From assembly GCA_025057415.1 (NCBI GenBank), contig JANWXI010000004.1, forward strand, positions 1 through 59,196: a stretch of 59,196 nucleotides of DNA. The letters run 5' to 3'. Positions 11 through 59,196 of this stretch are shown in pieces. The position numbers and the translations under genes were made by a program. The notes under the pieces are model-generated. The model had not been told where the DNA came from. It made no database searches and saw only the letters and a list, made by a program, of their open reading frames with translations. The DNA is from Chitinophagales bacterium. GTDB lineage: Bacteria > Bacteroidota > Bacteroidia > Chitinophagales > LD1. Within the stretch, counting starts at the first letter, position 1. Every line of letters begins with the position of its first letter.

Positions 11-170
11 GGTGAGGGATGCGGAGGGCGCGAGCGCAGCGAAGCGGCCACGCCCGCACCGTTGAAAAACAAACAACGCGCGGGCGCGGCGGGAGCGACA
101 GCGTACCCCGTAGCCAGCCCGACCCCGCTGCTGCGCGCAGCCCCGCGGAGCGCAGCAGCGGGGGCACCCC
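11..170 (+). repeat. ~160-bp structured dispersed repeat, copy 1 (orientation GGTGAGGGATGC...GGGGCACCCC)
   Basis: Near-identical to 13047-13208 and 51841-52002. Perfect 14-bp stem CCCCGCTGCTGCGC/GCGCAGCAGCGGGG at 123-163. Confidence 0.95.
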
Positions 171-228
171 ATAATATAAAACAATTTTTAATGTATTGCC
201 CGTTTCGTTTTGTGCGTATCGTTCATTT

Positions 229-1413
229 TTACAAGCGTATCGTTTTGCCATAGGCAACCTGGCGGTAAACATCCGCGCTGGGGCGCTTGCGGCGTTCCTT
301 TGTTTCAATGTCTGTTTCGTACAGGCCGAAGCGGTACGTAGGTCCCAGGTTCCACTCAAAGTTGTCAAATGTGCTCCACCAAAAATACCCCCGTATGTCC
401 ACTCCGCTCTGCATGCACGCATGCACAATACGCAGGTACTCTTTCATGGCGCTGATGCGGAAGTTGTCATCACTTGTGCATACGCCGCTTTCGGTAATGA
501 TTATCGGCAGGCGGTATTTTTTCCAGTAGCGGTGAATGCACTCCGCCATTCCTTGCGGGTAGTATTCCCACATGTCATCGTGGGGTTTGTTCAGTTTTTT
601 GATTTTGTCGGGAGTATCAATGTACGTTATGGGATGAGGGTCGTGTGAAATTTTTGCGTAGTAACTCATTCCAAAAAAATCTAACGCTCCGGCAAATTGT
701 TGCAGGCAAAAGTCCATAAACCACCAGTCCGAAATGCGAGCCGGTAAAAGACCGGCCAGGTTCTCTGCGCTGAAGATTACAGCATTATGACTGATGCCAA
801 CCGGAATATGCGGATGTTCGTTTTTAAGCTCTGTGTAAGCCAGATGGTGGGCTTTGCCCAGGTTTCTGATAACGCGGAAAGCTCTTCGGATGCTCCTTTG
901 CTGTGGTGGAAACAACCCCGTAATCCATCCGTTGCTAGCATACACGTTTGGTTCGTTAAAAGTATTCCAGAAGCGCACGTATTTGCCAAACCGTTGCGAT
1001 ACTTTTCTGGCAAAGTCAACCCATAATGCCACGTTCTCTTCCTTCTCCCACCCGCCTTTTGCAAGAAACCAGTTTGGATTGTGAAAGTGGTGCAGCACCA
1101 GCATTATTTGTACGCCTTTTGCGCTGAGTAATTCCAAAAATCGCTCGTATTCGTTAGCTGTTTCTTCGTGTAATGGGGCAAGCGGGGCGCGTTGCAGTTT
1201 GCTCCACAGAAAACCCATGCGGTAATACGGAGCGCAGTAGGCAATTATGTCGGCATCCTCCTCGCGGTGCAACTCATGGTCGCAGGTGCGGTTAAAAATG
1301 TGCCCGTCTTTTGATGTAAAGTTTACCCACTCATGTTCAAAAGCGGTTTCAATCTGTGCTGCCGCTGTAGAAGTTCCAAACACAAAGTCGGCCGGAAAAT
1401 GAAGTTCGGTCAT
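229..1413 (-). CDS. Glycoside hydrolase family 1 (beta-glucosidase-like)
   Basis: N-terminal FPADFVFGTSTAAAQIE, TFNEP acid/base motif, ITESG nucleophile motif, DNFEW...RFGL. Confidence 0.93.
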   Translation of the reverse strand: MTELHFPADFVFGTSTAAAQIETAFEHEWVNFTSKDGHIFNRTCDHELHREEDADIIAYCAPYYRMGFLWSKLQRAPLAPLHEETANEYERFLELLSAKGVQIMLVLHHFHNPNWFLAKGGWEKEENVALWVDFARKVSQRFGKYVRFWNTFNEPNVYASNGWITGLFPPQQRSIRRAFRVIRNLGKAHHLAYTELKNEHPHIPVGISHNAVIFSAENLAGLLPARISDWWFMDFCLQQFAGALDFFGMSYYAKISHDPHPITYIDTPDKIKKLNKPHDDMWEYYPQGMAECIHRYWKKYRLPIIITESGVCTSDDNFRISAMKEYLRIVHACMQSGVDIRGYFWWSTFDNFEWNLGPTYRFGLYETDIETKERRKRPSADVYRQVAYGKTIRL

Positions 1414-1613
1414 GTTGCCTGAGTGCTGTAAATATTGTGATTAAACACAAACGCCGTAAATAGAAAATAGAAATGACAAATCTGAAAATATAACTGCATG
1501 GTTGTGCGCATTTTTTATCTGGTAACAGTTTCTAAATAATGAAAATACGATGCCTTAACCGTATGGGTCAGCGAGTTAATTTTTTGCAATAAATTTTTGG
1601 TTTTTACTCAAAT

Positions 1614-2768
1614 ATGTACTTGTTTTACATCAGACCCACTAATACCCCTCCCGTGCGTCCAGAAGATACATGGTTGCTGTACGGATGTTATGGCTATACA
1701 GGAGAGTTGATTGCAAGGCACGCCGTAGAGTGTGGCATGCGTCCTACTTTGGCGGGGCGCGATGCAAACCGCGTGGCAAAACTTGCAGGGGAGTTAAATT
1801 TGCCCTACCTCGTTTTTCCGTTAAATGATGCCGATGCAATAGCCGAGCGCATAGCGGGTTTCAAATGTGTATTGCATTGTGCCGGCCCGTTTATTCACAC
1901 TGCACCGCCTATGCTCCGGGCTTGCCTCAAAAGCAAAGTGCACTACCTTGATATAACCGGAGAGTACCAGATATTTGAAGACGTGTTTGCGCTGGATAAA
2001 CAAGCCCGCGATGCGGGCATTATGCTCCTGCCCGGTGTGGGCTTTGATGTGGTTCCTTCAGATTGTCTGGCAGCTCACCTCAAAGATGCTCTTCCGTCAG
2101 CGCTGATGCTGGAGTTGGTAATCATGAGCTTGGGAGGTGGCATTTCGCGCGGTACAGCGCTCACCATTGTTGAAAACCTCGGCATGGGTACCGTCATCCG
2201 CCGGCGCGGTAAACTCCGCACCGTGGAGCAAGGCGAAATAACCCGTGCTATTGAATACAATAAAAAGTCCTATAATGCCGTGGCCATCACCTGGGGCGAT
2301 GTATCCACTGCCTATCGCTCCACATCCATTCCCAATATCACAGTTTACAGCGTACTGCCTCCGCGCGTCATACGCACATTAAAACTTAGCAACTTTATCA
2401 ATTTTGTCCTTCGTTCGGCATGGTTCAAAAAGCTCCTCCGCACTCGCATTACTTCGCGCCCGCCCGGCCCCGATGCCAACAAGCGCCAAAGCGCCCGCTC
2501 AGCCATTTGGGGCGAGGTATCTAACAACCTCGGCATCACCAAACAAATGCTGCTCACCCTGCCCGAAGGTTACACCCTCACTTACCTCACAGCCGTTGCC
2601 ATCGTAAACGAAGTCCTCAAAGGCAACTTCATAACCGGTGCGCAAACCCCCTCGCTGGTTTACGGCAAAGATTTCATCCTCCGCTTCAAAGGCGTACAAT
2701 TAGAAGACCTCTCACAAAACTTCCAAAAACCCCTCACAAGCGCAAAAGCTGTTTCGCGCTCTTCATAA
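1614..2768 (+). CDS. Saccharopine dehydrogenase-like NAD(P)-dependent oxidoreductase
   Basis: LYGCYGYTG Rossmann motif, LAGR, HCAGPF, HYLDITGE, GFDVVPSD. Start codon uncertain. Confidence 0.85.
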   Translation: MYLFYIRPTNTPPVRPEDTWLLYGCYGYTGELIARHAVECGMRPTLAGRDANRVAKLAGELNLPYLVFPLNDADAIAERIAGFKCVLHCAGPFIHTAPPMLRACLKSKVHYLDITGEYQIFEDVFALDKQARDAGIMLLPGVGFDVVPSDCLAAHLKDALPSALMLELVIMSLGGGISRGTALTIVENLGMGTVIRRRGKLRTVEQGEITRAIEYNKKSYNAVAITWGDVSTAYRSTSIPNITVYSVLPPRVIRTLKLSNFINFVLRSAWFKKLLRTRITSRPPGPDANKRQSARSAIWGEVSNNLGITKQMLLTLPEGYTLTYLTAVAIVNEVLKGNFITGAQTPSLVYGKDFILRFKGVQLEDLSQNFQKPLTSAKAVSRSS

Positions 2769-2796: not shown

Positions 2797-2959
2797 GGGG
2801 GTGCCCCCTGCTGCGTTGCGCTCGTACCTCGCGCAGGCAGCAGGGGTCGGGCTTGCTACGGGGTGCGCTGTCGCTCCCGCCGCGCCCGCACTTTGGTTGT
2901 TTTTCAACGGTGCGGGCGCGGCCGCTTCGCTGCGCTCGCGCCCTACGCATCCCTCACCC
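2797..2959 (-). repeat. Structured dispersed repeat, copy 2
   Basis: Reverse-complement match to copy 1 (GGGGGTGCCCCC...CATCCCTCACCC), 28 bp after the stop codon at 2768. Confidence 0.95.
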
Positions 2960-12573: not shown

Positions 12574-12946
12574 GTTTGCAGATTATTTGTGCGTTTAATC
12601 GGTATGATATGCTTAATATTTAACAATCATTGCCCATAGCCAGATTATATGAAAGAGAAATTGTATATTACGCATTTAAAGGCAACACATTCTGGCGAAA
12701 TCTATTCCTGAGGGTACAAAAGGGATTTTGTATCAGATGTATGTTCGCGGAGTTTATTTTCCTTCCTTTGAAGCAGCCGCTCAGTTACCCCGGTTAAATT
12801 TGCACTCCTGATGTATCCTGATTATCTGGAAAGAGTTTATGTGATAAGAGAGCATTGAAGTATCAGGACAGTAGTTAACGGTTAAGAGCTTATTGTGAAG
12901 TAGTCGTATCTGGGGGTTTTGTTGAATTTGTGTGATGTACCGCGAA

Positions 12947-12977
12947 TGCGCGCCTGCGCCTGCGGCGCAGGCGCGCA
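12947..12977. repeat. Perfect 14-bp GC-rich hairpin with 3-nt loop
   Basis: TGCGCGCCTGCGCC-TGC-GGCGCAGGCGCGCA, 70 bp from repeat copy 3. Confidence 0.8.
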
Positions 12978-13046
12978 GAAGAGTAGAATTGTGACAAGAG
13001 ACAGTATTGGTCAAATGACCTTACGCCCTTCTGCTCCTCTTCAATC

Positions 13047-13208
13047 GGGTGAGGGATGCGTAGGGCGCGAGCGCAGCGAAGCGGCCGCGCCCGCACCATT
13101 GAAAAGACAAGCAATGCGCGGGCGCGGCGGGAGCGAAAGCGTACCCCGTAGCCAGCCCGACCCCGCTGCTGCGCGTAGCTCTGCGGAGCGCAGCAGCGGG
13201 GGCACCCC
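13047..13208 (+). repeat. Structured dispersed repeat, copy 3
   Basis: GGGTGAGGGATGCGTAGGGCGCG...GGGGGCACCCC, in a divergent intergenic region. Confidence 0.95.
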
Positions 13209-24262: not shown

Positions 24263-24414
24263 GGGGGTGCCCCCGCTGCCTGGCGATGCAAGGCAGCGGG
24301 GTCGGGCTTGCTACGGGGTGCGCTTCGCTCCCGCCACGCCCGTAGTATTATTGATATTTCAAAGGTACGGGCGTGGCCGCTTCGCTGCACTCGCGCCCTC
24401 CGCATCCCTCACCC
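24263..24414 (-). repeat. Structured dispersed repeat, copy 4 (variant)
   Basis: GGGGGTGCCCCCGCTGCC...CGCATCCCTCACCC; central stem CCACGCCCGTA/TACGGGCGTGG. Confidence 0.93.
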
Positions 24415-35646: not shown

Positions 35647-35657
35647 GCTGGTGAGGG

Positions 35658-36073: not shown

Positions 36074-36244
36074 GGGTGAGGGATGCGGAGGGCGCGAACC
36101 CCGCCCGCTGCAGGAGGGCGGGGTGAAGCGGCCACGCCCGTACCCTTGAATAATTAAAAACTTACGGGCGGGGCGGGAGCGAAGCGCACCCCGTAGCAAG
36201 CCCGACCCCGCTGCCTTGCAACGCTTGGCAGCGGGGGCACCCCC
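36074..36244 (+). repeat. Structured dispersed repeat, copy 5 (carries an extra 9-bp hairpin)
   Basis: GGGTGAGGGATGCGGAGGGCGCGA...GGGGGCACCCCC; ACCCCGCCC/GGGCGGGGT at 36098-36124. Confidence 0.93.
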
Positions 36245-36439
36245 TAATAAGAAAAAATGGTGAAGTGACTGGCAGGGTTGCGCGGAAAATGCCGGGGATA
36301 TTTCGTATATGGAGTTAGCAGCCGCAGCGGTGTGGGTTGAAAATATGTGGATGTTTACGTATCTGCCGGCGCAATTAAATAACAGATTAACTATTGCATA
36401 ACAAATACTATGATACATTTGCGGGATAAAGGAATAGCT

Positions 36440-38200: not shown

Positions 38201-38311
38201 CGCTTTGCAATACATGCGCTGCATCCGTACATGCGGGTGCGGCTTTTCTTTTTATGATGCGTTGGGGACAAACCTGCCCGCTCTGTGCTCTGCCGGGGCA
38301 GATTCAGATGG

Positions 38312-39184: not shown

Positions 39185-39308
39185 GTAAGTGAGTAGTTTA
39201 ATAGTAGCAACAATTTTACTGGTTTGTTTCGGATTATCACATCACCTGACAAAACGTTACCGGCAAACTGTAAAATATGTGTATTTGTTGTATCATTGCG
39301 ATGGGGTA

Positions 39309-40067: not shown

Positions 40068-40070
40068 AAC

Positions 40071-40892: not shown

Positions 40893-40921
40893 TTTAAAAT
40901 AACGTATAAACGGTTACATCC

Positions 40922-41908: not shown

Positions 41909-42075
41909 GTTTTGCCTGTACATCAGGTTTTATAGTTTACGGTACATGGTGATAAACAGACGAGCCGATGAATCAACAAAGCATATCATCTTTCAGCATT
42001 TAGACGAATCATTGCTTGAAAAGGTGAATTGGTAATTTCAAAAACTTTGTATTGGTTTGATGTAAACACAATCGC

Positions 42076-43419: not shown

Positions 43420-43523
43420 GTGATTTTACTTTGTCCAGCCCGTATGGGTTGATGGGTTACGCTGTGCCGCTGAGAACGCCAGCGTATTACACAAGCAGTG
43501 TGTAAAGTTTCCTTTCTGTTTTG

Positions 43524-43531
43524 TATATTTG
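43524..43531 (+). promoter_or_regulatory. -7 promoter element TATATTTG upstream of riboswitch
   Basis: Matches TAnnTTTG about 25 bp before the riboswitch P1 stem. Confidence 0.6.
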
Positions 43532-43555
43532 CAGTAGCAGAGTTTTTGACATACG

Positions 43556-43670
43556 CATTTTGTTGCCCGCTATAGGCGGGTTCTTCAGGGGAACCATGTG
43601 CAAATCATGGGCTGTGGCGCAACTGTGAGCCCGCCTGCGGCGGGTAAGCCAGATTACCTGACAAAATGTG
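43556..43670 (+). ncRNA. Cobalamin (B12) riboswitch
   Basis: AGGGGAA-CCATG-TGCAAAT-CATGG T-loop stem, GCTGT-GCGCAACTGTGA, B12 box AAGCCAGATTACCTG; P1-like CATTTTGT/ACAAAATG. Confidence 0.85.
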
Positions 43671-43883
43671 CTGTTGCAATGCCTTCGCTCTAAAGGCTAA
43701 GCACAACCATACCCCTTTTCTTACAGGGGCTGTTTTGTTGTTGCTGCCTTTGAGCGGCAAATACAACAAAACAGAGTAAATGAACCATCACATATTTACT
43801 TGCTTTTTGCTCTCCGGTTACCCCCACGTTACGCGGAGCGGTTTCCTGCCGGAGTATTGCTTTTCAACCCAATATCCTGCGCC

Positions 43884-44282
43884 ATGAAACATGAAATAAA
43901 AACATGCCCGCGTTGCGGAAATGTATTTGAATGTAAAGTGGGCGATATCGCCAACTGTCAGTGCAACATACCGTTGAGCGACAGAACAAAGAAATTTTTG
44001 GCTGGCACTTACTACGATTGCCTTTGCGCTTCATGCCTGTTACACTTTGAAAAACTCAACGCGATTGCTTCTAAACAAACGTTTCCTGTGCAGAGCGAAC
44101 TGCTGATTGAAGGACTACACTACTACAGGGAGAACGGTTGTGTGGTCTTTACCGAACTATATCATTTGCTCAGGGGGTTTTGTTGCAACAGTGGATGCAG
44201 ACATTGTGTATATGGATACAAAAACCGCTCTACATCCAACTCTCCCGCTATAACCCTAACAAATACAAATATAAAAAACTGA
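43884..44282 (+). CDS. Cysteine-rich CWC-like domain fused to DUF5522-like domain
   Basis: CPRCGNVFEC...CQC...CLCASCL, then YYRENG..VFTE.YHLLRGFCCNSGCRHCVYG. Start set at MKHEIK. Confidence 0.8.
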   Translation: MKHEIKTCPRCGNVFECKVGDIANCQCNIPLSDRTKKFLAGTYYDCLCASCLLHFEKLNAIASKQTFPVQSELLIEGLHYYRENGCVVFTELYHLLRGFCCNSGCRHCVYGYKNRSTSNSPAITLTNTNIKN

Positions 44283-44286
44283 ATAT

Positions 44287-44856
44287 ATGTATAGGAGAAA
44301 TTTACAGCCAATCATGGCTTTGGATGTTTACCTTTCGGCATTACCCGTAGAAGAAGCACGCAAATTGTCGAAAGGCATCGGGGCAGCGCGTTTGCCCCGC
44401 TATCCTTTACTGTGTGCCGATGTAATCAGTTGTTATGGCGCTATGGCAATTCCGCCACATTTATATCAGGATTTAACTGCGCTGAAAAATTTATCTGTGA
44501 AATACAACTGGAACTGTAATTTCAGTTTTGTTTTGCGAAATGATTATGAGGCCATCGTAGTCACAGATACATTGCGTCAAATTATCTGGGTTAGCAGAGG
44601 TTTTAAAAAGATGACGGGCTACGACCCGGAGTACGCTATCGGGAAAAAGCCGGTTTTTCTGCAAGGACCCGAGACATCTCAGGCGGTTATCGCTTCCATC
44701 CGCCAAAAACTGCTTCGCGGTGAACCCTTCAGTGAAGTAATAGTGAATTACCGTAAAGACAAATCACCTTATCGCTGTGCGCTGCGCATATATCCGATTT
44801 GTGACTATGAAAAGCGCCCGGTTGCATTTATTGCTTTGGAAAAGCAAGTTGCTTGA
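44287..44856 (+). CDS. Stand-alone PAS domain protein, LOV-like but lacking the photoactive Cys
   Basis: F..MTGY....IGKKPVFLQGPET...NYRKD versus LOV consensus GxNCRFLQG...NYRKDG. Confidence 0.85.
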   Translation: MYRRNLQPIMALDVYLSALPVEEARKLSKGIGAARLPRYPLLCADVISCYGAMAIPPHLYQDLTALKNLSVKYNWNCNFSFVLRNDYEAIVVTDTLRQIIWVSRGFKKMTGYDPEYAIGKKPVFLQGPETSQAVIASIRQKLLRGEPFSEVIVNYRKDKSPYRCALRIYPICDYEKRPVAFIALEKQVA

Positions 44857-44868
44857 TGCTTAAAACGT

Positions 44869-45843
44869 ATGAATAAGAATTACCATATAATCCTATCTGC
44901 GCTATTATTCACCGCGCACTTACACGCTCAGTTTCCCGGTCCGGTGGGTACTCCGGGTTCCACCGCTATTTACAAAGACAGCCCCATATTCATAGCATGG
45001 GCTACTGCATGCTCAGTGGTGAGGGGGTATCAAAACATTGCCGACCCCACACTCGGCTTCACATCGCATGGCGACTCCTCACAAGCTACCGGAATAGCCG
45101 ATGGCACCGGGGTGGTAAGTTTGGGCGATGGCGGTTACGCTATTCTGACTTTTGCCAAGCCCATTACCAACGGACCGGGTTTTGATTTTGCTGTGTTTGA
45201 AAATGCTTTCAACGACCAGTTTCTGGAGCTTGCGTTTGTTGAAGTAAGCAGTGATGGCATAAATTTTTTCCGCTTTCCTGCCACTTCACATACTCCCACA
45301 TCATCGCAAGTGGGCCCTTTCAGTAACACGGGCGATGCGACAAAACTCAACAACCTGGCCGGCAAGTATCGCGTACTTTACGGCACCCCATTCGATTTGC
45401 AGGAACTTGACACAGTTGTCGGCTTGAACATCAACTTTATTACGCATGTAAAAATCATAGATGTAGTTGGCAGTATAGACCCCCAGTACGCCACTTACGA
45501 CCACTGGGGTAACGCAATAAACGACCCCTTCCCTACGGCATTTGCCACCGGAGGTTTTGACTTAGACGCCGTAGGCGTGATACACGAACTGTCTACGGTA
45601 TCATTGGATGATATAGACAGACATGAACCGAAACTGTATCCCAATCCGGCACCCTCTTTACAGGATGTGAACTTTGCCCTATTCCCCTATGGCGCCCGCA
45701 TCCATATCAGCGATATTAACGGTAGGGAGATTTGTCATTTCAGGCGCGATGAGAAGGGAGATTGTGTTATTGAAAGCGGCACATATCTGGTAACTATACA
45801 AACCGAGACAGACCGCAAGCTTTACAAACTCCTGATTTATTGA
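44869..45843 (+). CDS. T9SS type-A cell-surface protein
   Basis: Signal peptide; VVSLGDGG, DFAVFENAF, ELAFVEVSSDG, GFDLDAVG; C-terminal LYPNPA...GTYLV. Confidence 0.85.
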   Translation: MNKNYHIILSALLFTAHLHAQFPGPVGTPGSTAIYKDSPIFIAWATACSVVRGYQNIADPTLGFTSHGDSSQATGIADGTGVVSLGDGGYAILTFAKPITNGPGFDFAVFENAFNDQFLELAFVEVSSDGINFFRFPATSHTPTSSQVGPFSNTGDATKLNNLAGKYRVLYGTPFDLQELDTVVGLNINFITHVKIIDVVGSIDPQYATYDHWGNAINDPFPTAFATGGFDLDAVGVIHELSTVSLDDIDRHEPKLYPNPAPSLQDVNFALFPYGARIHISDINGREICHFRRDEKGDCVIESGTYLVTIQTETDRKLYKLLIY

Positions 45844-45896
45844 TGGAGATTTACGTACCTCACTTTAAATAGCTGAATACACCATAACCAATTTAA

Positions 45897-46598
45897 ATGA
45901 ATGTACCCCATAAAACTGTTATGCACTGGAGCAGTGGTAAGGACTCGGCATTAGCCCTCTATTACCTGATGCGCGATTCGAAGTATAGTGTAGAATACCT
46001 CCTCACGGGCATAAATGCGCATCATCATAGGGTGAGTATGCACGGCCTGCGCGTAGAGTTACTGTATGAACAACTGCATGCCATTGGTATCAGAAACGGG
46101 GTGGTGTTGCTACCCGGCCAGCCTGACAACAAGACGTATGAAACGCTGATGCGCCGCAAAACATTACAACTGGCAAGGGAGGGTTTCACACATGCGGGGT
46201 TTGGGGATATTTATCTGAGCGATTTACGGCAATACCGCGAGCAACTGTACAATCCTCTTCACGTGCAATGTGTATTTCCGCTTTGGCACAAGAGTACTTC
46301 ACAACTCATACAGGAGTTTTTGAATTTTGGGTTTAAAGCCATTACGGTGAGTGTGAATGCATCCTTGTTGGATGAGACCTTCGTGGGGCGCCTGGTAGAT
46401 GAGGATTTTATCAAAGACCTGCCACCCAGCATTGACCCTTGTGGTGAAAACGGAGAATTTCACACCTTCTGCTATGATGGGCCGTATTTCAAACACCCGG
46501 TAAAATTTACCGTAGGTGAAAAGGTGCTCAAAGAATACAGCAACGGAACCGAAAGCAGCTCCTTTTGGTTTTGTGACCTGATACCTGCGTCGGACTAA
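45897..46598 (+). CDS. PP-loop ATP-binding protein, diphthine-ammonia ligase (Dph6)-like family
   Basis: WSSGKDSALA, FGDI, DPCGENGEFHTF. Confidence 0.9.
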   Translation: MNVPHKTVMHWSSGKDSALALYYLMRDSKYSVEYLLTGINAHHHRVSMHGLRVELLYEQLHAIGIRNGVVLLPGQPDNKTYETLMRRKTLQLAREGFTHAGFGDIYLSDLRQYREQLYNPLHVQCVFPLWHKSTSQLIQEFLNFGFKAITVSVNASLLDETFVGRLVDEDFIKDLPPSIDPCGENGEFHTFCYDGPYFKHPVKFTVGEKVLKEYSNGTESSSFWFCDLIPASD

Positions 46599-47686
46599 GG
46601 TATCTGCGCAGCATATACGCCAACCGGAACGTGGTAGAGCCAGCCGTATAAATCTTCGGCTTTACCTGATTTGATGGCTATCAATCTTTGGCGCAGTTTG
46701 TTAGAAACATCGCGAAGCTCTACCGGAGGCAATTCATATACTTCGCCTTTGTAGAAAAATTCACCGATGTGCGACAGCACGGCGGCGGTGCCGGTACCGA
46801 ACATATCGTCTAACTTACCCTGGTTGTGAGCATCAATCACCTCGTCAATCGAAATGTCGCGTTCTTGCACCACGTATCCTTCTTCCTGCGCCAGGGTAAT
46901 AATACTATCGCGGGTTACTCCGTGGAGGATAGTGCCTTCGTGCAGCGAAGGGGTGATGATGATGCCGTCAATGATTACGAAAATATTCATGGTGCCTATT
47001 TCCTGCAGGTAGCGGTGGTGGATACCGTCCAGCCACAGGATTTGGTCATAGCCCAGCTTCTTTATTTCGCGCAGGGGCATCATGGCAGCTGCATAATTCC
47101 CCGCGCACTTAGCGTATCCGGTGCCACCCGGAAAAGCCCGCACGTACTTGTCATGCACATACACCCGTACCGGATGATGATAGTATTTGCCCACCGGACT
47201 GGTGAACACGCAAAAGATGAACCGCTCGGCAGGTTTTATACCCACTATCTCTTCAGCGGCAAACATGAAAGGGCGTATGTAAAGTGATGAATCAGGCGAG
47301 GTGGGTATCCAGTCGCGGTCTATGGTGAGTAGATGGTCAATGGCGCCCATGAAAATTTCTTCGGGTACTTGAGGCATGGCCATACGCTCGGCTGATAGGT
47401 TGAAACGCTCAAAGTTCTTTTGGGGACGAAAAACGATGGGTACACCCTCATTGTTTTTTTCGGCTTTGATGCCTTCAAATATGGCTTGCCCGTAGTGTAA
47501 AGCCGAAAGCGCCGGATGGATGGAAATGTTGCCGAAGGGTACCACCCGGCAATTGTCCCAGTCACCGTTTTCGTATTCTGCAATAAACATGTGGTCAGAG
47601 AAAATAGACCCGAAAGGCAGGTTGCTGAAATCTACATTGCCGATGCGTGAACGTTTAGTACGTTCAATGTGTATTTTGTACCCCAT
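46595..47686 (-). CDS. ilvE: Branched-chain amino acid aminotransferase
   Basis: LHYGQAIFEGIKA, SLYIRPF, AKCAGNYA, EIGTMN, ILHGVTRDS, GTGTAA. Confidence 0.96.
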   Translation of the reverse strand: MGYKIHIERTKRSRIGNVDFSNLPFGSIFSDHMFIAEYENGDWDNCRVVPFGNISIHPALSALHYGQAIFEGIKAEKNNEGVPIVFRPQKNFERFNLSAERMAMPQVPEEIFMGAIDHLLTIDRDWIPTSPDSSLYIRPFMFAAEEIVGIKPAERFIFCVFTSPVGKYYHHPVRVYVHDKYVRAFPGGTGYAKCAGNYAAAMMPLREIKKLGYDQILWLDGIHHRYLQEIGTMNIFVIIDGIIITPSLHEGTILHGVTRDSIITLAQEEGYVVQERDISIDEVIDAHNQGKLDDMFGTGTAAVLSHIGEFFYKGEVYELPPVELRDVSNKLRQRLIAIKSGKAEDLYGWLYHVPVGVYAAQIP

Positions 47687-47985
47687 GTCTTTTGTTTAGT
47701 GTGTGTGCCAAAGTTAGGAATATTTTACCGGTTTTAACGGAATAGTATTCCACATTCAGGCACAACTTATTACAAAGCTAATCCTACATCTGGTCAAAGC
47801 AAGGCGAGTGGTGTTTTTTAAAGAATTTGTAATGTTTCAGCAACCATTGGTAAATGACCGGCGCTATAGCCGCTTATATTTACGCGAGTGTGTTTTACAG
47901 GCAAATAGGGGAGTAAGTTTTATTTTTAGATGTAAGAGGAGTTTTTTAACCGGCGTATCGTTAGTAAAGTAGGAATCTGAGGTTG

Positions 47986-48023
47986 AAAAATGTTGCGCCC
48001 CGACCTTTGGTCGGGGCGCAACA
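47986..48023 (-). terminator. Intrinsic terminator after rplX
   Basis: 15-bp stem TGTTGCGCCCCGACC/GGTCGGGGCGCAACA followed on the minus strand by TTTTT. Confidence 0.85.
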
Positions 48024-48054
48024 AGTTATTGTTTATGAAAATGTGAATGTACCG

Positions 48055-48363
48055 TTAATCAATGGTCTTTTGCGTTTTTTTAGAGTAGCGCACCCTTTTG
48101 CCATTTTCAATGCGGCGGCCTACACGGGTAGGTTTACCGTCTGACATCAGCGCTACGTTAGAAATATGGATGCCACCGGGAACTTTAATGATGCCTCCCT
48201 GAGGATTTTTGGGACTGGGCTTTGTGTGTTTTGTTTTCAGGTTTATTCCCTCTACGTATACACGCATGTTCTTCCGGTCAATGTCAATTACTCTGCCTGT
48301 TTTGCCTTTGAATTCACCGGTAAGGATGTACACTGTGTCGTTTTTTTTGATGTGAAGTTTCAT
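48055..48363 (-). CDS. rplX: 50S ribosomal protein L24
   Basis: [29 protein letters not shown]. Confidence 0.97.
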
Positions 48364-48392
48364 GTTTTGTATTTTGAGAGGTTAACCATGTT

Positions 48393-48761
48393 TTAAAGCA
48401 CCTCAGGAGCAAGTGAAATGATTTTCATAAATTGCTTGTCGCGCAGCTCGCGGGCTACAGGGCCAAAGATGCGCGTACCGCGCGGCTCGTCCTGGTTGTT
48501 GAGCAATACCACAGCATTGTCATCAAAACGAATGTAAGAGCCGTCTTTGCGGCGGAAGGGTCGAGTGGTACGCACCACCACGGCTCTGGAAATTGATTTC
48601 TTTTTGATGCCTCCGGTGGGGAGTGCTTTTTTTACGGTAACCACCACCTTGTCACCTATGGCTGCATATCTTCTGCGCGTACCGCCCAGTACGCGAATGA
48701 TGAGCACTTCCTTGGCGCCACTGTTATCAGCCACATTTACTCTAGATTCCTGTTGCAACAT
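48393..48761 (-). CDS. rplN: 50S ribosomal protein L14
   Basis: [38 protein letters not shown]. Confidence 0.99.
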
Positions 48762-48796
48762 AATGTTACGTTTTTAAAAGCGTTGTGGTAAAAAAA

Positions 48797-49051
48797 TCAT
48801 TTGGCTCTCTCAATAATTTCCACCAATCGCCAGCGCTTGGTTTTGCTGAGCGGACGGGTTTCGGCTATACGCACTATGTCGCCAACTTTGGCTTCGTTTT
48901 TCTCGTCATGAGCTTTGAAGCTTTTGGTTTGCTTCATGTACTTGCCATAAATAGGGTGCTGCACCTTTCTTTCAATAGAGACAGTGATGGTTTTATCCAT
49001 CTTATCGCTTGTAACGATGCCGATACGTTCTTTTCTGAGTTTTCTTTCCAT
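48797..49051 (-). CDS. rpsQ: 30S ribosomal protein S17
   Basis: [27 protein letters not shown]. Confidence 0.99.
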
Positions 49052-49057
49052 AGTAAG

Positions 49058-49276
49058 CTATGCTTTGTTTTCCTTTTTGCGTTTGTTAAGCTCTGTGAGC
49101 ATCCGGGCTATGTTTCTGCGTTTGGTGCGTATAGCCAGGGGGTTATCGAGCGGGGTTACAGAATGGTTGAATACCATTCTCCGCAGTTCCTCGCGTTCGC
49201 TCTTAATTTTGGCGATGAGGTCTTCTGTTACAAACTGCTGAATGTCCTTCTGGTTAAGTTTTTTATTAACACCCAT
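49058..49276 (-). CDS. rpmC: 50S ribosomal protein L29
   Basis: LDNPLAIR..RRNIAR.LTEL; lies between rplP and rpsQ. Start 49276 or 49285. Confidence 0.92.
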   Translation of the reverse strand: MGVNKKLNQKDIQQFVTEDLIAKIKSEREELRRMVFNHSVTPLDNPLAIRTKRRNIARMLTELNKRKKENKA

Positions 49277-49295
49277 GATTGACAAGTTTTATAAC

Positions 49296-49718
49296 TTAAG
49301 CGCCAATAGCATCCCTGCGGGTTATAAATTTGGTTTTCACCGAAAGTTTGTGCGCCGCCAGCATCATGGCTTCGTGAGCAACCTCGCGGCTCACCCCGTC
49401 CACTTCAAACAATATACGGCCTGCTTCTACCATAGCTTCCCAACCTTCGGGGTTTCCTTTACCTTTCCCCATGCGCACCTCAAGCGGTTTGCGGGTAATG
49501 GGCTTGTCAGGAAATATCCGTATCCACACTTTTCCCTCGCGCTTCATAAAGCGGGTAAATGCCACCCGTGCGGCCTCTATCTGCTTGTTGCTGATTCGCC
49601 CGCTCTCAATGGCTTTAAGTCCGTAAGTGCCAAAAGCAATCTCAGCGCCGCGGTAGGTTTTATCGGCTACGCGCCCCTTTTGGGTCTTGCGCCATCTGGT
49701 ACGTTTAGGGAGTAACAT
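49296..49718 (-). CDS. rplP: 50S ribosomal protein L16
   Basis: [28 protein letters not shown]. Confidence 0.99.
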
Positions 49719-49755
49719 GGTATGTGCGTTAGCTTATCGTTTGGTTTTACAAAAT

Positions 49756-50472
49756 TTACTTCTCTTTACGGTTGCGCGGAATTCTGCCTTTGGGCCTTAT
49801 CTTTTCGGGCTTGTCCTCACCGGCAAAAGCGCCCGTAAGGTCGCGCTTACCATATACCTCACCGCGGCAAATCCACACTTTAATCCCAAGTTTGCCATAC
49901 ACTGTGAGGGCTTCTGCTAAACTGTAATCAATATCAGCACGCCAGGTGTGCAAGGGTACCCGCCCCTGCTTGTATTCTTCCGAGCGCGCCATATCCGCGC
50001 CGCCTATCCTGCCTCCGATGCGTATTTTGATGCCCTCTGCACCCATGCGCATAGCCGAGGCAATCGCCATCTTAATGGCGCGGCGGTAGTTGATACGGGC
50101 TTCTAACTGTTTGGCGATGGTTTCGCCCACTATTGCCGCCTCCAGCTCGGGCCGGCGGATTTCAACAATGTTTATCTGTACGTCTTTATTGGTCAGCTTC
50201 TTCAATTCTTCTTTAATGCGGTCCACCTCGCTGCCGCTGCGGCCAATAATAATACCCGGTCGGCTGGTGTGAATGGTAACGGTAACGCGCTTAAGCGTAC
50301 GCTCAATTACAATGCGCGATATACCTCCTTTATTAATGCGGATTTTCAGGTACTGGCGAATCTTTTCATCTTCAATTAGCTTTTGGGCTGCATCTTTGCC
50401 CCCAAACCAGTTGCTCTCCCAGCCGCGAATAATGCCGAGGCGATTAGCAATAGGACTTGTCTTCTGACCCAT
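49756..50472 (-). CDS. rpsC: 30S ribosomal protein S3
   Basis: [41 protein letters not shown]. Confidence 0.99.
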
Positions 50473-50531
50473 TCAGGCGTATTTTGTGTTTTTTTAATGA
50501 AATATGTACCTATCCTCCTAAAAAAGGAGTG

Positions 50532-50562
50532 CAAATATAGTTTTCCTGCACGGAGTTACAAA
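50532..50562 (-). promoter_or_regulatory. Bacteroidota sigma-A promoter upstream of rpsC
   Basis: Minus strand: TTTG (50562-50559), 19-bp spacer, TATATTTG (50539-50532); a canonical match. Confidence 0.75.
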
Positions 50563-50722
50563 CTGTGAACTGTAAATTTTTTAACACACCCCTTCCTGTG
50601 AGGCCAAAACCGGCGAGAACGTGCATAAAATAATACGGACATAATCTCAACAACACTGTGCCAAATCCATACATATACAACACGATAAAACTCCTACAAT
50701 AGATAACATTTTATCGTTTATC

Positions 50723-50863
50723 GGGGGGTGCCCCCCGCAGCAGCGCGCTCGTACCTCGCGCGCTGCTGCGGGGGGCGGGCGTGCTACCGGGTGCGCGTTC
50801 GCTCCCCTGCTCCACACCGTTTCGCACCGCTCCCGGTGGTCGCGCCCTCCGCATCCCTCACCC
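50723..50863 (-). repeat. Structured dispersed repeat, copy 6 (shorter variant lacking the central long hairpin)
   Basis: GGGGGGTGCCCCCC...CGCGCCCTCCGCATCCCTCACCC; 17-bp perfect stem 50731-50775. Confidence 0.9.
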
Positions 50864-51159
50864 GGAAAAAAAAGCGGTTCTTAACGGACAATCGTTTCAG
50901 AAAATCTTAGCCCGTTTTACAGGTGCATAACTGTTGAAACACAAATGTTCATGCAAAATAACGGCTACCTGATTAATTGGCATAACATTGCTAAGTACCT
51001 TTTATTTGGCGCGGATACCCCGGTAGCGCACACACGCTTAACTGCACAAGTCGGAGCGATGTTTTATGAATGATGTTATACGCTGCATCATTCCTCAATC
51101 CACATATGGCTCATAAATTGAGTAATGAGCGGGGGATGATTTGCGATGGTATTTGGCTC

Positions 51160-51522
51160 TCACTCCTTTAATTCCCGCAGCGAAAATTTGGCCGGGCTGG
51201 CGGTGATAGATATGTTGCGGGTACTGCCGTCGCGTTGTATAAAGCTCAGGGTGGCGTTTTCATCGTCAGACCAGTTGATTTTTACAGAGTTACTGTCAAG
51301 GTGCTCGGCATACACCTGCAACCTAAACTCACCTTTGTGTTGGTTGTAAGCATCAATGCTGATGAGGGTTTCAAACGGTTCTAGTATGTTGCTGCGCTCA
51401 CCTGTCACTATGATTTTTACTGCTCCGTTGGCATGGGTAAACTTTACTTTACCCTCTTTTGAGCCGCTGCAGGCATAAAGTGAGAGGAGCGCTGTGTACA
51501 ACATCGTTTTTGTAAAGTTCAT
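51160..51522 (-). CDS. Hypothetical lipoprotein, flanked by inverted repeat copies 6 and 7
   Basis: MNFTKTMLYTALLSLYA-C-SG lipobox; 120 aa. Confidence 0.75.
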   Translation of the reverse strand: MNFTKTMLYTALLSLYACSGSKEGKVKFTHANGAVKIIVTGERSNILEPFETLISIDAYNQHKGEFRLQVYAEHLDSNSVKINWSDDENATLSFIQRDGSTRNISITASPAKFSLRELKE

Positions 51523-51665
51523 TTTGTTGTGATTAATAAAGTAAAGGTATGAAAACACTTTTGTTGTGGTAGGGTTGCAGGAGTTTATTTTTAGTTGATG
51601 GTGTATCAGAAAAATCGGGGGGTGCATTCAGCGGCTTGTTTGTTGGAGGTTTTGTGGAGGTTTTT

Positions 51666-51690
51666 CCGCGCCGCGCGAAGCGCGGCGCGG
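51666..51690. repeat. Perfect 11-bp hairpin with GAA triloop
   Basis: CCGCGCCGCGC-GAA-GCGCGGCGCGG, 150 bp from repeat copy 7. Confidence 0.8.
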
Positions 51691-51840
51691 GAATGTTAAG
51701 GTGAGGCGGGTGTGGTTATTTTCTGTGCGCGCCCGGTGGCATCCCCTTGTCATATTATATTTATTCTTTATACGAATCATTGCCCTGCCAACTCACCTGT
51801 GCTGCTTTGCGCAACACAAGGGCCGCCGGAGCGATTGCTT

Positions 51841-52002
51841 GGGTGAGGGATGCGTAGGGCGCGAGCGCAGCGAAGCGGCCGCGCCTGTACCGTTGAAAAA
51901 CAAACAACGCACGGGCGCGGCGGGAGCGGCAGCGTACCCCGCAGCAAGCCCGACCCCGCTGCTGCGCGTAGCTACGCGAAGCGCAACAGCGGGGGCACCC
52001 CC
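51841..52002 (+). repeat. Structured dispersed repeat, copy 7
   Basis: Near-identical to copies 1 and 3. Confidence 0.95.
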
Positions 52003-52117
52003 AATAATTAAAAAATAAACATATATAAAATATTGTGCATTTATTAACGCGAAACCCGCAATGCGTTTTGCGCTGCGGGGTGAGCGGGGCGCGGGTTGTT
52101 GAAAACTTTTGGGCGAT

Positions 52118-54217
52118 TTACCAATGGAGCAGTTCGTCAATTGCCTGGCGGACGAGTTCGGCATTTGGGAGCATGGCACGTTCTAAATCTTCATTGAGCG
52201 GAATGGCGGGTGTGTTTACGGCTCCGATGATTTTTACCGGTGCATCGAGGTGTGTGAAGTGTGCAGATGCGATGCGACCTGCCAGCGCTTCGGCAAAGGA
52301 GTGTGTGACGGTTTCTTCGGTGATTACGATGACTTTGCCGTGGCGGGTTACGGCTTCGGCTATTGTGGTTTCATCGAGCGGGTTGAGTGAGCGCAGGTCT
52401 ATGATTTCTACGCGGCCGGGGAAATTTTTTGCGGCATTCCACGCCCAGTGCACCCCCATGCCGTAGGTGATGATGCAGAGGGTTTCTCCATTGGCGGTGT
52501 GTTGCGGTGATGCAGCGAGGGCGATGCGCGCTTTGCCGAGGGGTACTACGTAATGTTCGTCCGGCTCGATGGTTTTGGCGTTTTCGGTGCCTTTCACTTT
52601 GCTCCAGTAGAGGCCTTTGTGTTCAAATATCACTACTGGGTTTGGGTCGAGGAAGGCGGCTTTCATCAGTCCTTTCATGTCGGCAGCGTTGCTGGGGTAA
52701 GCTACTTTTACACCTTTAATTTGCAGTACGAAACTTTCAACGGAGGAGGAGTGGTAAGGTCCTCCGCTTCCGTATGCGCCAATGGGTACGCGAATGAGCG
52801 ATTGAATCGGCCATTTGCCGTTGCTCAGGTAACAAGAGCGCGACACTTCGGTAAAAAGTTGGTTGATGCCGGGAAAGATGTAGTCGGCAAACTGTATTTC
52901 TACGATGGGTTTGCAACCCACCGCGCTCATGCCTACTGTGGAACCGATAATGTACGCCTCCATGATGGGCGTGTTGAACACACGCTTATCGCCATATTTT
53001 TTGGCGAGGAGTGCTGCCTCGCGAAACACACCGCCAAGTTCACCACCCACATCCTGCCCGTAGAGCAGTGCCTCGGGGTATTGGCGCAGAATTTCGTCCA
53101 CGGCATGCAGCGCAGCATCTACCATCACTACGGTTTGCCCGCCCTTGGGTTCGCGCTCTCCTTTTTCTTCAGTTACGGGAGTAGGTACAAAGATGTGTTG
53201 CGTAAGTTGCGAAACATCGGGCGAGGGCTGCTGCAGGGCGCGTTCAAAATCGCTGTGCACCTTTTCGCGGGCTTCGCGCTCTATCTCGTCTAACTGATGC
53301 GCAGGGGCGATTTTGCCGTACAACAGATATTTTTTGAACCTGGTGTATGGGTCGCGCATCGCATCGCTCTCTAAGTTTTCTTTAGAGCGGTACCACTCTT
53401 TACGCACACCCGAAGTGTGATGGTTGAGTAAGGGCACTTTGGCGTGCACCAGGTAAGGCGCGCGGTGAGTGCGCACGTAGTTGACTACCCGGCTGAGGGT
53501 TTCGTAACACTCTGCAAAGTCAGTGCCGTCAATGCTTTCTACTTTCAAGCCCTTAAAACCTTTTGCATATTCAGATGCATCCTGCGCGCGTATTTCGCGG
53601 GCGTGAGCGCTGATGTCCCACTCATTATCCTGCACCAGATATATGATAGGATACTGGTGTAACACTGCCATCTGAAATGCCTCGCTCACTTCCCCTTCGG
53701 TAATGGCGCCATCGCCCAGCGAGCACAACACGATAGGGGCTTCGCCCTTTTTGTATTCCGCAAGCGACATTTCCTCTTTGTATCGCAACCCCTGAGCAGC
53801 TCCGGTGGCAGGAATTACCTGCATGCCTGTGGCAGAACTCTGGTGAGGTATTTTGGGACGGTCGGGCAGGGTGCTGGATGGGTGTGCATAATACGTACGC
53901 CCGCCCGAAAAGTAATCGGTGCCTTTTGCCAAAAGCTGCAACATCAAATCATAAGGCGTAAAACCCATGCCTAACAGCATGGCATCATCGCGGTAGTACG
54001 GAAAGGCGTAATCGTAAGGTTTTAACTGAAAAGCCGCTGCTAACTGAATGGCCTCGTGCCCCCGCGAGGTAGCGTGTACGTATTTCTGCGTAATGTCTTT
54101 GCGCGCCTCATATAATTCCGCCATGGCTTTGGCGGTACACATGAGGCGGTAGGCGTGTAGCAAAACGTCGGTGGTGGGCTTCACAGAAGGCAAATAAACG
54201 ATTTGCCGGTAAAACAA
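52118..54217 (-). CDS. 2-oxoacid (branched-chain-type) dehydrogenase E1, fused alpha/beta subunits
   Basis: GHEAIQ, YYRD, GDGAITEGE...DN TPP motif; beta part GQDVG..GGVFR, FNTPI.E, EIQFADY, FEHKGLY. Start uncertain. Confidence 0.93.
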   Translation of the reverse strand: MFYRQIVYLPSVKPTTDVLLHAYRLMCTAKAMAELYEARKDITQKYVHATSRGHEAIQLAAAFQLKPYDYAFPYYRDDAMLLGMGFTPYDLMLQLLAKGTDYFSGGRTYYAHPSSTLPDRPKIPHQSSATGMQVIPATGAAQGLRYKEEMSLAEYKKGEAPIVLCSLGDGAITEGEVSEAFQMAVLHQYPIIYLVQDNEWDISAHAREIRAQDASEYAKGFKGLKVESIDGTDFAECYETLSRVVNYVRTHRAPYLVHAKVPLLNHHTSGVRKEWYRSKENLESDAMRDPYTRFKKYLLYGKIAPAHQLDEIEREAREKVHSDFERALQQPSPDVSQLTQHIFVPTPVTEEKGEREPKGGQTVVMVDAALHAVDEILRQYPEALLYGQDVGGELGGVFREAALLAKKYGDKRVFNTPIMEAYIIGSTVGMSAVGCKPIVEIQFADYIFPGINQLFTEVSRSCYLSNGKWPIQSLIRVPIGAYGSGGPYHSSSVESFVLQIKGVKVAYPSNAADMKGLMKAAFLDPNPVVIFEHKGLYWSKVKGTENAKTIEPDEHYVVPLGKARIALAASPQHTANGETLCIITYGMGVHWAWNAAKNFPGRVEIIDLRSLNPLDETTIAEAVTRHGKVIVITEETVTHSFAEALAGRIASAHFTHLDAPVKIIGAVNTPAIPLNEDLERAMLPNAELVRQAIDELLHW

Positions 54218-57995: not shown

Positions 57996-58118
57996 AGCCC
58001 GCAATTTTGGGGGCACAAATATAACCTTATTGTTGAGAACTAATACCCGATTTACAAACCTTTGTCACCTTACAACGCCCGCGATTTAATTTATTTGCCG
58101 CCTGCAACTTCACACCAC

Positions 58119-58997
58119 ATGCTATTACTGGACGGCAAAAAGCTATCCGAAGAGATAAAAGCCGAAATTAAAACTCAAGTAGAGAAACGCCTGCTTACCG
58201 GCAAAAGCGCCCCCCACCTGGCGGCTATACTGGTGGGCAACGATGGAGGCAGCTTAACTTACGTGGGGCACAAAGTAAAGGCGTGCGAGCAGGTAGGGTT
58301 TCGCTCCACATTGTTGCACTTTCAGGAAAACATCACTCAGGATGCGCTCCTGAAGGAAATTGAACGCCTCAATGCCGACAATACCGTGCACGGCTTCATC
58401 GTGCAACTCCCCCTGCCCGCTCACATCGATGCCACCCGCGTTTTGTTGCACATCCACCCTTCCAAAGATGTGGACGGTTTTCACCCCGTAAACGTGGGGC
58501 GCATCACATTGGGCATGCCCGGCTTCGTATCGGCAACTCCTCTCGGCATCACCAGGTTGCTTGAGCGCTACGCCATTCAAACCGCCGGCAAACACTGCGT
58601 CATTATCGGCCGCAGCAACATCGTAGGTCGCCCCCTAAGCATCCTGCTGAGCAGCCAGAGCGCCACCGGCAATGCCACCGTCACCCTTTGCCACTCCCGC
58701 ACCCAAAACCTCGCATCCATCACCCGCCAGGCCGACATCCTCATCGCGGCCCTCGGCAAACCCGAGTTCCTCACTGCCAACATGGTAAAAGAAGGCGCCG
58801 TAGTCATTGACGTAGGCACTACCCGCGTACCCGACCCAAGCGCCAAAACCGGCTGGCGCCTCAAAGGAGACGTAAAATTTGACGAGGTAGCCCCAAAATG
58901 CTCAGCCATCACGCCCGTTCCCGGCGGCGTAGGTCCCATGACCGTCGTATCGCTCCTGCTCAACACCCTGCAGGCAGCGCAGCAAGCCGACCCTTAA
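58119..58997 (+). CDS. folD: Bifunctional methylene-THF dehydrogenase/cyclohydrolase
   Basis: LLDGK, VQLPLP, KDVDGFHP.N, GRSNIVGRP, TPVPGGVGPMT. Confidence 0.98.
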   Translation: MLLLDGKKLSEEIKAEIKTQVEKRLLTGKSAPHLAAILVGNDGGSLTYVGHKVKACEQVGFRSTLLHFQENITQDALLKEIERLNADNTVHGFIVQLPLPAHIDATRVLLHIHPSKDVDGFHPVNVGRITLGMPGFVSATPLGITRLLERYAIQTAGKHCVIIGRSNIVGRPLSILLSSQSATGNATVTLCHSRTQNLASITRQADILIAALGKPEFLTANMVKEGAVVIDVGTTRVPDPSAKTGWRLKGDVKFDEVAPKCSAITPVPGGVGPMTVVSLLLNTLQAAQQADP

Positions 58998-59073
58998 CTC
59001 GCCACCGGTTGCGGTCGCATACCCGCGTACGAAATACATTAACAAAAAATCTTATATGTATTTTCATTTTTCA

Positions 59074-59196
59074 GGGGGTGCCCCCGGTGCGCCCCCCGCG
59101 TAACAAACCGGGCGCACAGGGGGCGGGCGGGCGAAGGGGTAACCAGTCGCTACCCCCCCCCCCCGGAGATTTTTTTTTTTATAAAAGGTACGGGCG
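59074..59196 (-). repeat. Structured dispersed repeat, copy 8 (divergent, truncated by window end)
   Basis: GGGGGTGCCCCC start, hairpin GTGCGCCC/GGGCGCAC, GGGGGCGGGC, and ends in AAAGGTACGGGCG as in copy 4. Homopolymer runs suggest low-quality end sequence. Confidence 0.75.

Follow-up and report, generated by a model that had tools for sequence, protein, structure and literature searches.

A high-copy, structured intergenic repeat with a covarying three-way junction in Chitinophagales and other Bacteroidota

The element and its copies

The stretch of DNA considered here, called the window throughout, is the 59,196-nucleotide contig JANWXI010000004.1 of a Chitinophagales bacterium (GenBank assembly GCA_025057415.1). 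The window is contig C141 of the draft genome, designated G000, which comprises 3,220,024 bases in 196 contigs. Between its long open reading frames (ORFs) lie eight GC-rich segments of about 160 bases each that align together as one repeat family. According to the window's ORF list, all eight are intergenic, and the 18 adjoining or nearby ORFs that were scanned specify housekeeping or secreted proteins, rpsL, rpsC, EF-G, DnaB, FtsK, and GltX among them. The cores of the copies have a G+C content of about 70%, as against about 47% for the window. A preliminary description of this DNA, made from the letters alone, had reported eight such copies, all of them intergenic, and no transposase in the window. 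Placement by motif anchors plus alignment of the eight stretches recovers each copy to within 1-3 nucleotides (nt) of the earlier coordinates, and the 18 scanned ORFs include no transposase. Our central finding, which is larger than the one first described, is that these copies belong to a phylum-wide, patchily distributed, multi-copy family that folds into a three-way junction maintained by compensatory changes.

The element is abundant in its genome. Specifically, a profile built from the eight window copies and searched with nhmmer yields 281 hits at E ≤ 1e-3, far beyond chance, with E-values down to 1e-51; 208 of these are full-length copies. Approximately 280 copies correspond to roughly 1.4% of the 3.2-Mb genome. 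The copies are dispersed singly, about 11 kb apart, and none of the profile hits contains an internal gene. The preliminary description had taken the presence of copies at both window ends as a sign that the assembly breaks at a high-copy repeat, and this holds: of the 392 contig ends, 110 have a copy no more than 400 bp away. Because the element breaks short-read assemblies in this manner, a covariance model for it would aid annotation of Chitinophagales genomes and assembly of genomes from metagenomes.

The 5' segment of the element, beginning GGGTGAGGGATGCG, is almost invariant, as are a central linker and the 3' end, GGGGCACCCC. Two hairpins, H1 and H2, sit between these near-invariant segments. 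H2, the terminal hairpin, occurs as 166 distinct sequences among 228 instances, with few loop types; within one loop type, the stem differs at many positions yet stays paired. H2 loops have the same orientation in 203 of 210 cases and are inverted in the other 7. The stems and near-invariant linkers quoted in the preliminary description appear in the alignment as they were given there. Its unit of about 160 bp stands as the core of the element but not as its full extent, since an A-rich 3' tail and optional 5' leader modules extend it. Specifically, several of the first 7 positions past the last C are A in 70-79% of copies, and a short A-rich 3' flank likewise lies behind copies in every other genome examined. 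The class I leader, present in the window at 51730-51840, occurs 42 times in the genome, and every time the core follows. This leader therefore extends the element and is no repeat in its own right. Elements also form mosaics with other hairpin modules.

As the preliminary description had noted for the window, no consistent target-site duplication accompanies the copies: across 200 of them, the longest word shared by the two 25-nt flanks averages 3.71 nt, versus 3.85 nt for shuffled pairings. Among 93 aligned copies, nearest-neighbor identity has a median of 0.914 and a maximum of 0.988. The copies in this genome are not young. That their core is nearly untouched despite such divergence points to selection on the copies in place, or to propagation from intact copies only.

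Fold and covariation

The element is a three-way junction. Helix P1 brings the two ends together; P2, P3, and further short helices make up a long, irregular arm that leads to H1; and H2, whose length and sequence vary freely, completes the junction. The ends had been thought to form only a 5-bp inverted repeat; instead, they pair as a covarying helix that closes the junction. Single copies form much more stable folds than shuffles do on either strand, at -93.6 kcal/mol (z -3.84) and -96.8 kcal/mol (z -4.93).

A covariance model called R1, made from seven window copies, was used to align 93 copies drawn from the window and from 40 genome stretches. In this single-genome alignment, 93.5% of the cells are paired, 30 of 46 pairs show double changes, none of 500 shuffles scores as high, and no slid register comes close, although these values overstate independence in that the alignment is biased to the model structure and the copies are kin. 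Because model bias and kinship inflate the 93-copy numbers, the evidence from other genomes is the stronger part. Among 41 copies from five genomes, 94.0% of the cells are paired and 34 of 46 pairs show double changes, a result that 0 of 500 shuffles reach. In 16 copies from a single named Chitinophagales metagenome-assembled genome (MAG), 12 of the 14 H2 pairs covary. Across the five genomes, P1 takes the forms GGGUG/CACCC, GCGUG/CACGC, GCGCG/CGCGC, GUGCG/CGCAC, and GCGGC/GCCGC; the 3-bp helix P2 occurs as GGG/CCC, AGG/CCU, GUG/CAC, and GCG/CGC; and one P3 pair covaries likewise. The helices P1-P3 are 3-5 bp long, and their partners lie approximately 100-150 nt apart. Such distant partners are not local palindromes, and palindrome repair therefore cannot explain the covariation of P1-P3.

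The preliminary description had argued, from eight copies, that pairing is kept while sequence diverges. The larger sets of 93 and 41 copies bear this out, with strong covariation within the genome and stronger covariation across genomes. Its broader proposal, that selection acts on the fold and that the element is a functional structured nucleic acid (a single-stranded DNA [ssDNA] signal, a repeat of the repetitive extragenic palindrome [REP] or REP doublet [REPIN] kind, or a noncoding RNA) and not a neutral MITE (miniature inverted-repeat transposable element), is supported by the covariation, by a core that persists both where aligned stretches of at least 400 nt are only 65-82% identical (apart from one 781-nt stretch at 93%) and in other Bacteroidota classes, and by an organization that does not fit a MITE. 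Covariation this strong over a fold of several helices normally marks a functional RNA; here, it is encountered in a dispersed repeat.

The two strands of the element are not equivalent. G-U cells outnumber A-C cells by 36 to 13 in P1-P3, H1, and H2, and by 18 to 0 in H1, P2, and P3, which favors a folding strand that reads GGGTG...CACCC. Unpaired letters on this strand are A-rich, with an AT skew of 0.35. The word GCGAAGC, which forms a very stable DNA mini-hairpin, occurs 280 times on the folding strand, while its complement occurs 4 times. The length of the element varies from 88-98 nt in one genus, in which H2 has only a few pairs, to 205-209 nt in others, with the junction core unchanged. 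An internal loop of the long arm contains a conserved G-N-A-G, mostly GTAG, whose second letter can be T, A, C, or G. Two further pairings were considered and set aside, namely, pairing of a conserved GCGC box in the 5' flank with the core and extension of P1 into the flanks; by eye, neither has consistent complementarity.

The window copies and their parts are collected in Table 1. Just beyond copy 6, rpsC (49756-50472, minus strand) is preceded by that copy and by a 155-amino-acid (aa) ORF (51160-51627) without a Pfam match, and not by rplV; the ribosomal protein cluster at 49756-51627 seems to be interrupted or rearranged. Contigs from one DNA data set, aligned to window positions 35000-54000, give no informative joint; the sole joint at element borders connects 50865 to 51840 and looks like a repeat-driven misjoin. 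Elsewhere, positions 43564-43710 (plus strand), upstream of the ORF at 43800-44282, give a sub-threshold match to the adenosylcobalamin (AdoCbl) riboswitch over the full model length (31.1 bits versus a gathering score of 50; E 0.08).

Table 1. Copies of the element in the window, with their leader modules and, for the reference copy, the positions of the helices
Feature	Position	Strand	Remarks
Copy 1, full core	10..170	+	159.4 bits (model R1)
Copy 1, class I leader	1-9		cut by contig start
Copy 1, A-rich tail	~171-185
Copy 2, full core	2798..2959	-	157.8 bits (R1); between saccharopine-dehydrogenase-like gene and rpsL
Class II 5' leader module, joined to copy 3	12770..13046	+	repeats 12-28 times in the genome; holds further GC-rich hairpins
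Copy 3, reference copy	13047..13208	+	170.2 bits (R1); fold -93.6 kcal/mol, z -3.84
Copy 3, helix P1	13047-13051/13203-13207
Copy 3, helix P2	13053-13055/13156-13158
Copy 3, H1 (tip of long arm)	~13084-13128
Copy 3, H2	~13161-13201
Copy 4, short H2 type	24264..24414	-	168.8 bits (R1)
Copy 5	36074..36243	+	143.8 bits (R1); additional 20-nt hairpin after the conserved 5' segment
Copy 6, variant with replaced, much shorter central arm	50725..50863	-	81.3 bits (R1); just upstream of rpsC
Class I 5' leader module, joined to copy 7	51730..51840	+
Copy 7, full core	51841..52001	+	168.7 bits (R1)
Copy 8, 5' part lost at contig end	59075..59196	-	57.9 bits (R1), model positions 42-161

Distribution and genomic context

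The element family is phylum-wide, patchy, and multi-copy. BLAST with one copy finds nothing in the 39 other species of the genus. A second covariance model, R2, was made from the diverse alignment and applied to at most 46 or 20 candidates per genome; it gives a single match each in G008 and G013, two of those 39 congeners. By the same model, the carriers are 10 of 67 genomes in the bacterial family, spread over 5 of its 6 genera; 18 of 151 genomes (each at least 90% complete) in the order, from 6 of the 22 sampled families; and 5 of 151 genomes in the phylum, which include G000 and reach another order and two other classes. The core letters of the phylum-level matches are recognizable by eye. 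Carriers have between 1 and 43 scored copies, and the present genome, with its approximately 280, is the extreme case.

Catalogs offer no name for the family. Rfam 15, in which the preliminary description had singled out Bacteroidota motifs such as Flavo-1, gives no match at the gathering score in the window and no match to the element in eight loci of other genomes. At E ≤ 1, the sole Rfam match on a copy is Atu_C7, at 23.8 bits against a gathering score of 45, which is at the level of chance. An exact 24-letter motif of the element is absent from the viral contigs and from the JGI metagenome contigs searched, and it occurs in at least 21 stretches of genome contigs, all from one named MAG among the matches listed. 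We found no prior description of the element in the literature outside subscription journals. The named MAG and the present genome are 65-82% identical in aligned stretches of at least 400 nt, with the exception of one 781-nt stretch at 93%. That stretch (contig C49:5539-6305; L020:1-779) adjoins a copy of the element in both genomes, and it covers the start of a gene whose predicted product resembles the N terminus of a restriction-modification or BREX-type methylase. Its identity suggests a recent horizontal transfer between the two lineages.

How the copies are placed relative to genes differs among genomes. Here, 152 evaluable copies are randomly oriented with respect to their neighbors, as judged from crude ORF calls (37 convergent, 39 divergent, 33 sense, and 43 antisense). 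Elsewhere, of 40 copies that could be evaluated, 30 point their 3' end at the 3' end of a gene, in many cases 5-60 nt away, and the median distance is about 45 nt. The copies share no recurrent neighboring gene family: the 783 neighboring ORFs of this genome cluster only into common families, the two largest of which (40 and 11 members) are assumed to be secreted proteins and receptors, and no transposase or recombinase recurs among them. Likewise, the neighbors of single and low-copy instances in five genomes are unrelated genes.

Orientation is also biased with respect to base composition. In the present genome, the orientation of 120 of 182 copies agrees with local GC skew and that of 62 does not; where |skew| exceeds 0.03, 65 of 88 copies agree. 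Thus, the folding strand lies preferentially on the presumed lagging-strand template. Within the genus, comparison of filled and empty sites gave no usable pairs: the other species are too distant, and synteny is lacking at the rpsL flank. In a separate observation, contig C5 of G163 (L177:3040-11189) and contig C14 of G141 (L178) hold three to four copies in one orientation, all inside 8 kb and set between unrelated genes, downstream of a gene for a REP-associated tyrosine transposase (RAYT). The two genomes differ there by gene-plus-element blocks.

Candidate enzymes, explanations, and known systems

We tentatively favor the idea that the element is an atypical, unusually large ssDNA element, akin to REPs and to bacterial interspersed mosaic elements (BIMEs), that is serviced by Y1 (RAYT) enzymes; it is the account we would choose, held well short of conviction. 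The notion is that the element, folded as single-stranded DNA and most likely on the lagging-strand template, would be recognized by a RAYT-type Y1 HUH enzyme, with the Bacteroidota-specific subclass 2.6 as the obvious candidate. The enzyme would copy or move the element without duplicating the target. If so, copies would propagate or persist only by retaining the fold and the conserved letters of the junction, and covariation would be the outcome. DNA as the substrate, the identity of the enzyme, and continuing movement are all three inferred. The features in favor are the multi-copy, intergenic, patchy spread, the lack of duplication together with paired ends of only 5 bp, the single-strand-specific fold, the skew bias, the mosaics, the adjacency of RAYT genes, and an intact RAYT-like gene in the genome.

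Specifically, RAYT genes adjoin copies at 149, 398, and 631 nt in G141 (two loci) and G340, and one lies 1.7 kb from a copy in G163; these genomes belong to genera g21 and g22. The adjoining proteins match the NCBIfam model REP_Tyr_transpos at 103.4 and 113.7 bits, against a cutoff of 80. In every adjacency, the 5' end of the element points toward the RAYT gene, and weak element-like matches mirror it on the other side. Given 8-13 copies in 2.5-3.6 Mb, adjacency within 1 kb has a chance of less than 1% per gene. The present genome encodes one intact, divergent RAYT-like protein (C122:9318-9932; 40.6 bits) with HUH and Y motifs, and tblastn together with a small RAYT profile, run over all six frames of this genome, finds that one only.

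Several observations weigh against a RAYT partnership and against present-day movement. The C122 gene is packed among housekeeping genes, with no element in its flanks. A clade of 182-aa RAYTs occurs in 55 of 67 family genomes, including non-carriers, and is missing from the carriers G152 and G347; a clade of 204-aa RAYTs occurs in 32 of 67 but not in G347, G340, or G163. These phyletic patterns do not match that of the element, present in 10 of 67. The scan of related genomes for a partner protein, advocated in the preliminary description, has returned a split answer: RAYT genes adjoin copies in some genomes, but their occurrence does not track that of the element. Moreover, in the g21 genomes (L177, L178, and L179), the 182-aa RAYT is directly flanked by its own inverted repeats of about 50 nt, which have several further copies per genome and are also present in the non-carrier G117. 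This RAYT and its 50-nt repeats are a separate small REPtron system, of which the Y-shaped element may be only a neighbor. No two of the 93 aligned copies are identical, so they give no sign of recent movement. Among the close relatives G141, G163, and G194, intergenic regions have been replaced as a whole, with no clean insertions. The bias with skew finds no support in 20 windows of 20 kb taken from G104 and G152, where skew is noisy. Finally, the A-rich unpaired letters and the copies that face gene 3' ends suit an RNA as well.

Other enzyme families were also surveyed. PF01797 gives nothing over its cutoff in G000 or G041. The Y1 genes that it finds in G104, G152, and G090 were considered as partners and rejected, as their flanks hold other short hairpin repeats and not the element. 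Those genes (L141-L145) encode predicted proteins of about 150-175 aa, with a Y motif that fits the published subclass 1.2 signature, and they are embedded in arrays of unrelated, short, GC-rich hairpin repeats. Our genome contains no intact TnpA of the insertion sequence (IS) IS200 type, and a frameshifted, stop-ridden relic of one lies on contig C116 at about 15,700-16,100 (minus strand; L030:1100-2000). Beyond the 3' end of this relic stands a solitary H2-like hairpin with the terminal word of the element and an A-rich tail, in the opposite orientation. No parent IS was found for the element. The TnpB domain PF07282 is absent from all five carriers searched. The IS91-type domain Y2_Tnp (PF04986) gave no match in five carriers, but none in the control genomes either, so this negative is uninformative. 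A gene for a 512-aa reverse transcriptase (RT; C119:66650-68188, plus strand; L119:1066-2604; RVT_1, 53.8 bits) lies approximately 280 nt from the copy at C119:66197-66369, and from its sequence the protein looks like a defense-type RT. In G090, the genome's single copy adjoins a fragment of a tyrosine recombinase gene (L089:998-1429).

The main rival to the RAYT-serviced ssDNA element is a structured RNA family, which we regard as possible but on the doubtful side. The element would then be a cis-acting element or a multiplied small RNA gene, its junction a module that binds protein or RNA, for example in 3'-end protection or processing, and its copies under selection locus by locus. All helices covary, the long-range ones included; G-U is tolerated on one strand, on which the unpaired positions are A-rich; different classes of the phylum keep the core while peripheral arms vary in length (88-209 nt), as in many RNAs; and the combination of within-genome divergence with a nearly untouched core fits selection per copy. 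The 30 of 40 copies that abut a gene 3' end in other genomes, at a median of about 45 nt, point the same way, but there the folding strand is antisense to the abutting gene. A range from 280 copies in one genome down to zero in 37 of the 39 congeners is also unlike a host RNA gene. Further points against an RNA are random orientation to neighboring genes in this genome, unrelated neighbors, and the lack of an Rfam match. By eye, the 5' flank has no conserved promoter motif and the fold is followed by no run of T, with the limit that no dedicated promoter or terminator scan was made. The data narrow the choice between an ssDNA element and an RNA and do not settle it.

Three further explanations deserve less weight. 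We consider it unlikely that the element, instead of being just a REP variant, represents a novel class of structured, self-propagating nucleic acid in Bacteroidota, one that spreads without a dedicated neighboring gene and has the junction as its catalytic or recruiting core; such an entity would spread either as RNA, in the manner of a short interspersed nuclear element (SINE) or bearing a ribozyme, or as ssDNA recognized by a host enzyme in an undescribed way. It is improbable, too, that other machinery mobilizes a non-autonomous element, be it a tyrosine recombinase acting on folded strands, as at integron attC sites, or a reverse transcriptase, in SINE-like fashion. The A-rich 3' tail conserved in all lineages could suggest a SINE-like retroelement, conservation of structure over sequence recalls attC sites, and both a recombinase fragment and an RT gene lie beside a copy in G090 and G000, respectively. 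However, searches of G152 and G104, both 100% complete and with 43 and 33 copies, found no RVT_1; the RT of G000 is probably of the defense type; the copies are dispersed and do not form cassette arrays beside an integrase; and recurrent recombinases among the 783 neighboring ORFs and TnpB domains in the five carriers are both lacking. Lastly, a decaying classical MITE or a neutral repeat, its hairpins kept by descent or palindrome repair, is very improbable. H1 and H2 are indeed local palindromes, subfamilies account for part of the double changes, and the 7 inverted loops among 210 show rearrangement driven by palindromes. This reading is nonetheless largely refuted by the covariation of the long-range helices P1, P2, and P3 across genomes and by a core that is almost invariant while stems vary and that is kept across classes; the absence of a duplication and of a parent IS, together with ends of 5 bp, likewise disfavors it.

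The stakes of the two leading explanations differ. If the element is a RAYT substrate, the shapes recognized by Y1 enzymes widen from simple hairpins to a junction with paired ends, and the element offers a tractable model for a Bacteroidota subclass that is poorly described. As an RNA, it would represent a widespread unannotated family.

Among known systems, classical MITEs differ from the element, which has ends of 5 bp, lacks a duplication, contains no internal gene in any copy, and has no recurrent transposase among the 783 ORFs. Integron attC sites occur in cassette arrays beside an integrase, with defined core sites. Like them, the element conserves structure over sequence, folds one strand, and has paired ends and a variable terminal structure; unlike them, its copies are dispersed singly. 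The ends of IS200/IS605 elements and of their gene-less derivatives, palindrome-associated transposable elements (PATEs), resemble the element as envisaged here: they are single-strand folds recognized by Y1 enzymes, with no duplication, no long inverted ends, a lagging-strand bias, and a conserved short flank on one side. IS200/IS605 elements are described as excising from and inserting into the lagging-strand template (PMC5027513). Their folds are two separate subterminal hairpins, whereas the element is one junction with paired ends. Its conserved flank is on the 3' side, whereas PATEs are defined by a fixed 4-5-nt target 5' of the left end, and G000 has only the frameshifted TnpA relic.

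The closest resemblance is to REPs, BIMEs, and REPINs with their RAYTs. The shared features are high copy number, extragenic location, GC-rich hairpins, no target duplication, mosaic arrays, frequent placement beyond gene 3' ends, patchy distribution, a favored strand, and, in some genomes, a copy beside RAYT genes. REPs are described as single hairpins of 20-40 nt with an unpaired GT[AG]G foot (PMC3733652, PMC6006769). The element, by contrast, measures 88-209 nt and is a covarying three-way junction with paired ends, neither one short palindrome nor such a palindrome doubled in inverted orientation; its G-N-A-G sits within an internal loop, with a second letter that varies; and RAYT presence does not track it. 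A nearer counterpart may lie within its own phylum. Quentin et al. (2018) report that Bacteroidetes TnpA-Y1 genes of subclass 2.6 have atypical secondary structures in their flanks, of which the genome holds additional copies, structures that are called weak and were found by eye (PMC6006769). Compared by description only, these and the element share the phylum, structured repeats adjacent to RAYT genes, additional genome copies, and the lack of a GT[AG]G consensus in what is described. Judged by their predicted sequences, the RAYTs beside copies of the element also resemble that subclass (PMC6006769), with WQ and YIH[QN]NP motifs and an HUH-to-Y distance of about 84 aa, although the direct flanks of the g21 RAYT are a different, 50-nt inverted repeat. 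Strict REP membership fails on size and on shape and is doubtful on the GT[AG]G foot; the element nevertheless seems to work like a REP or BIME.

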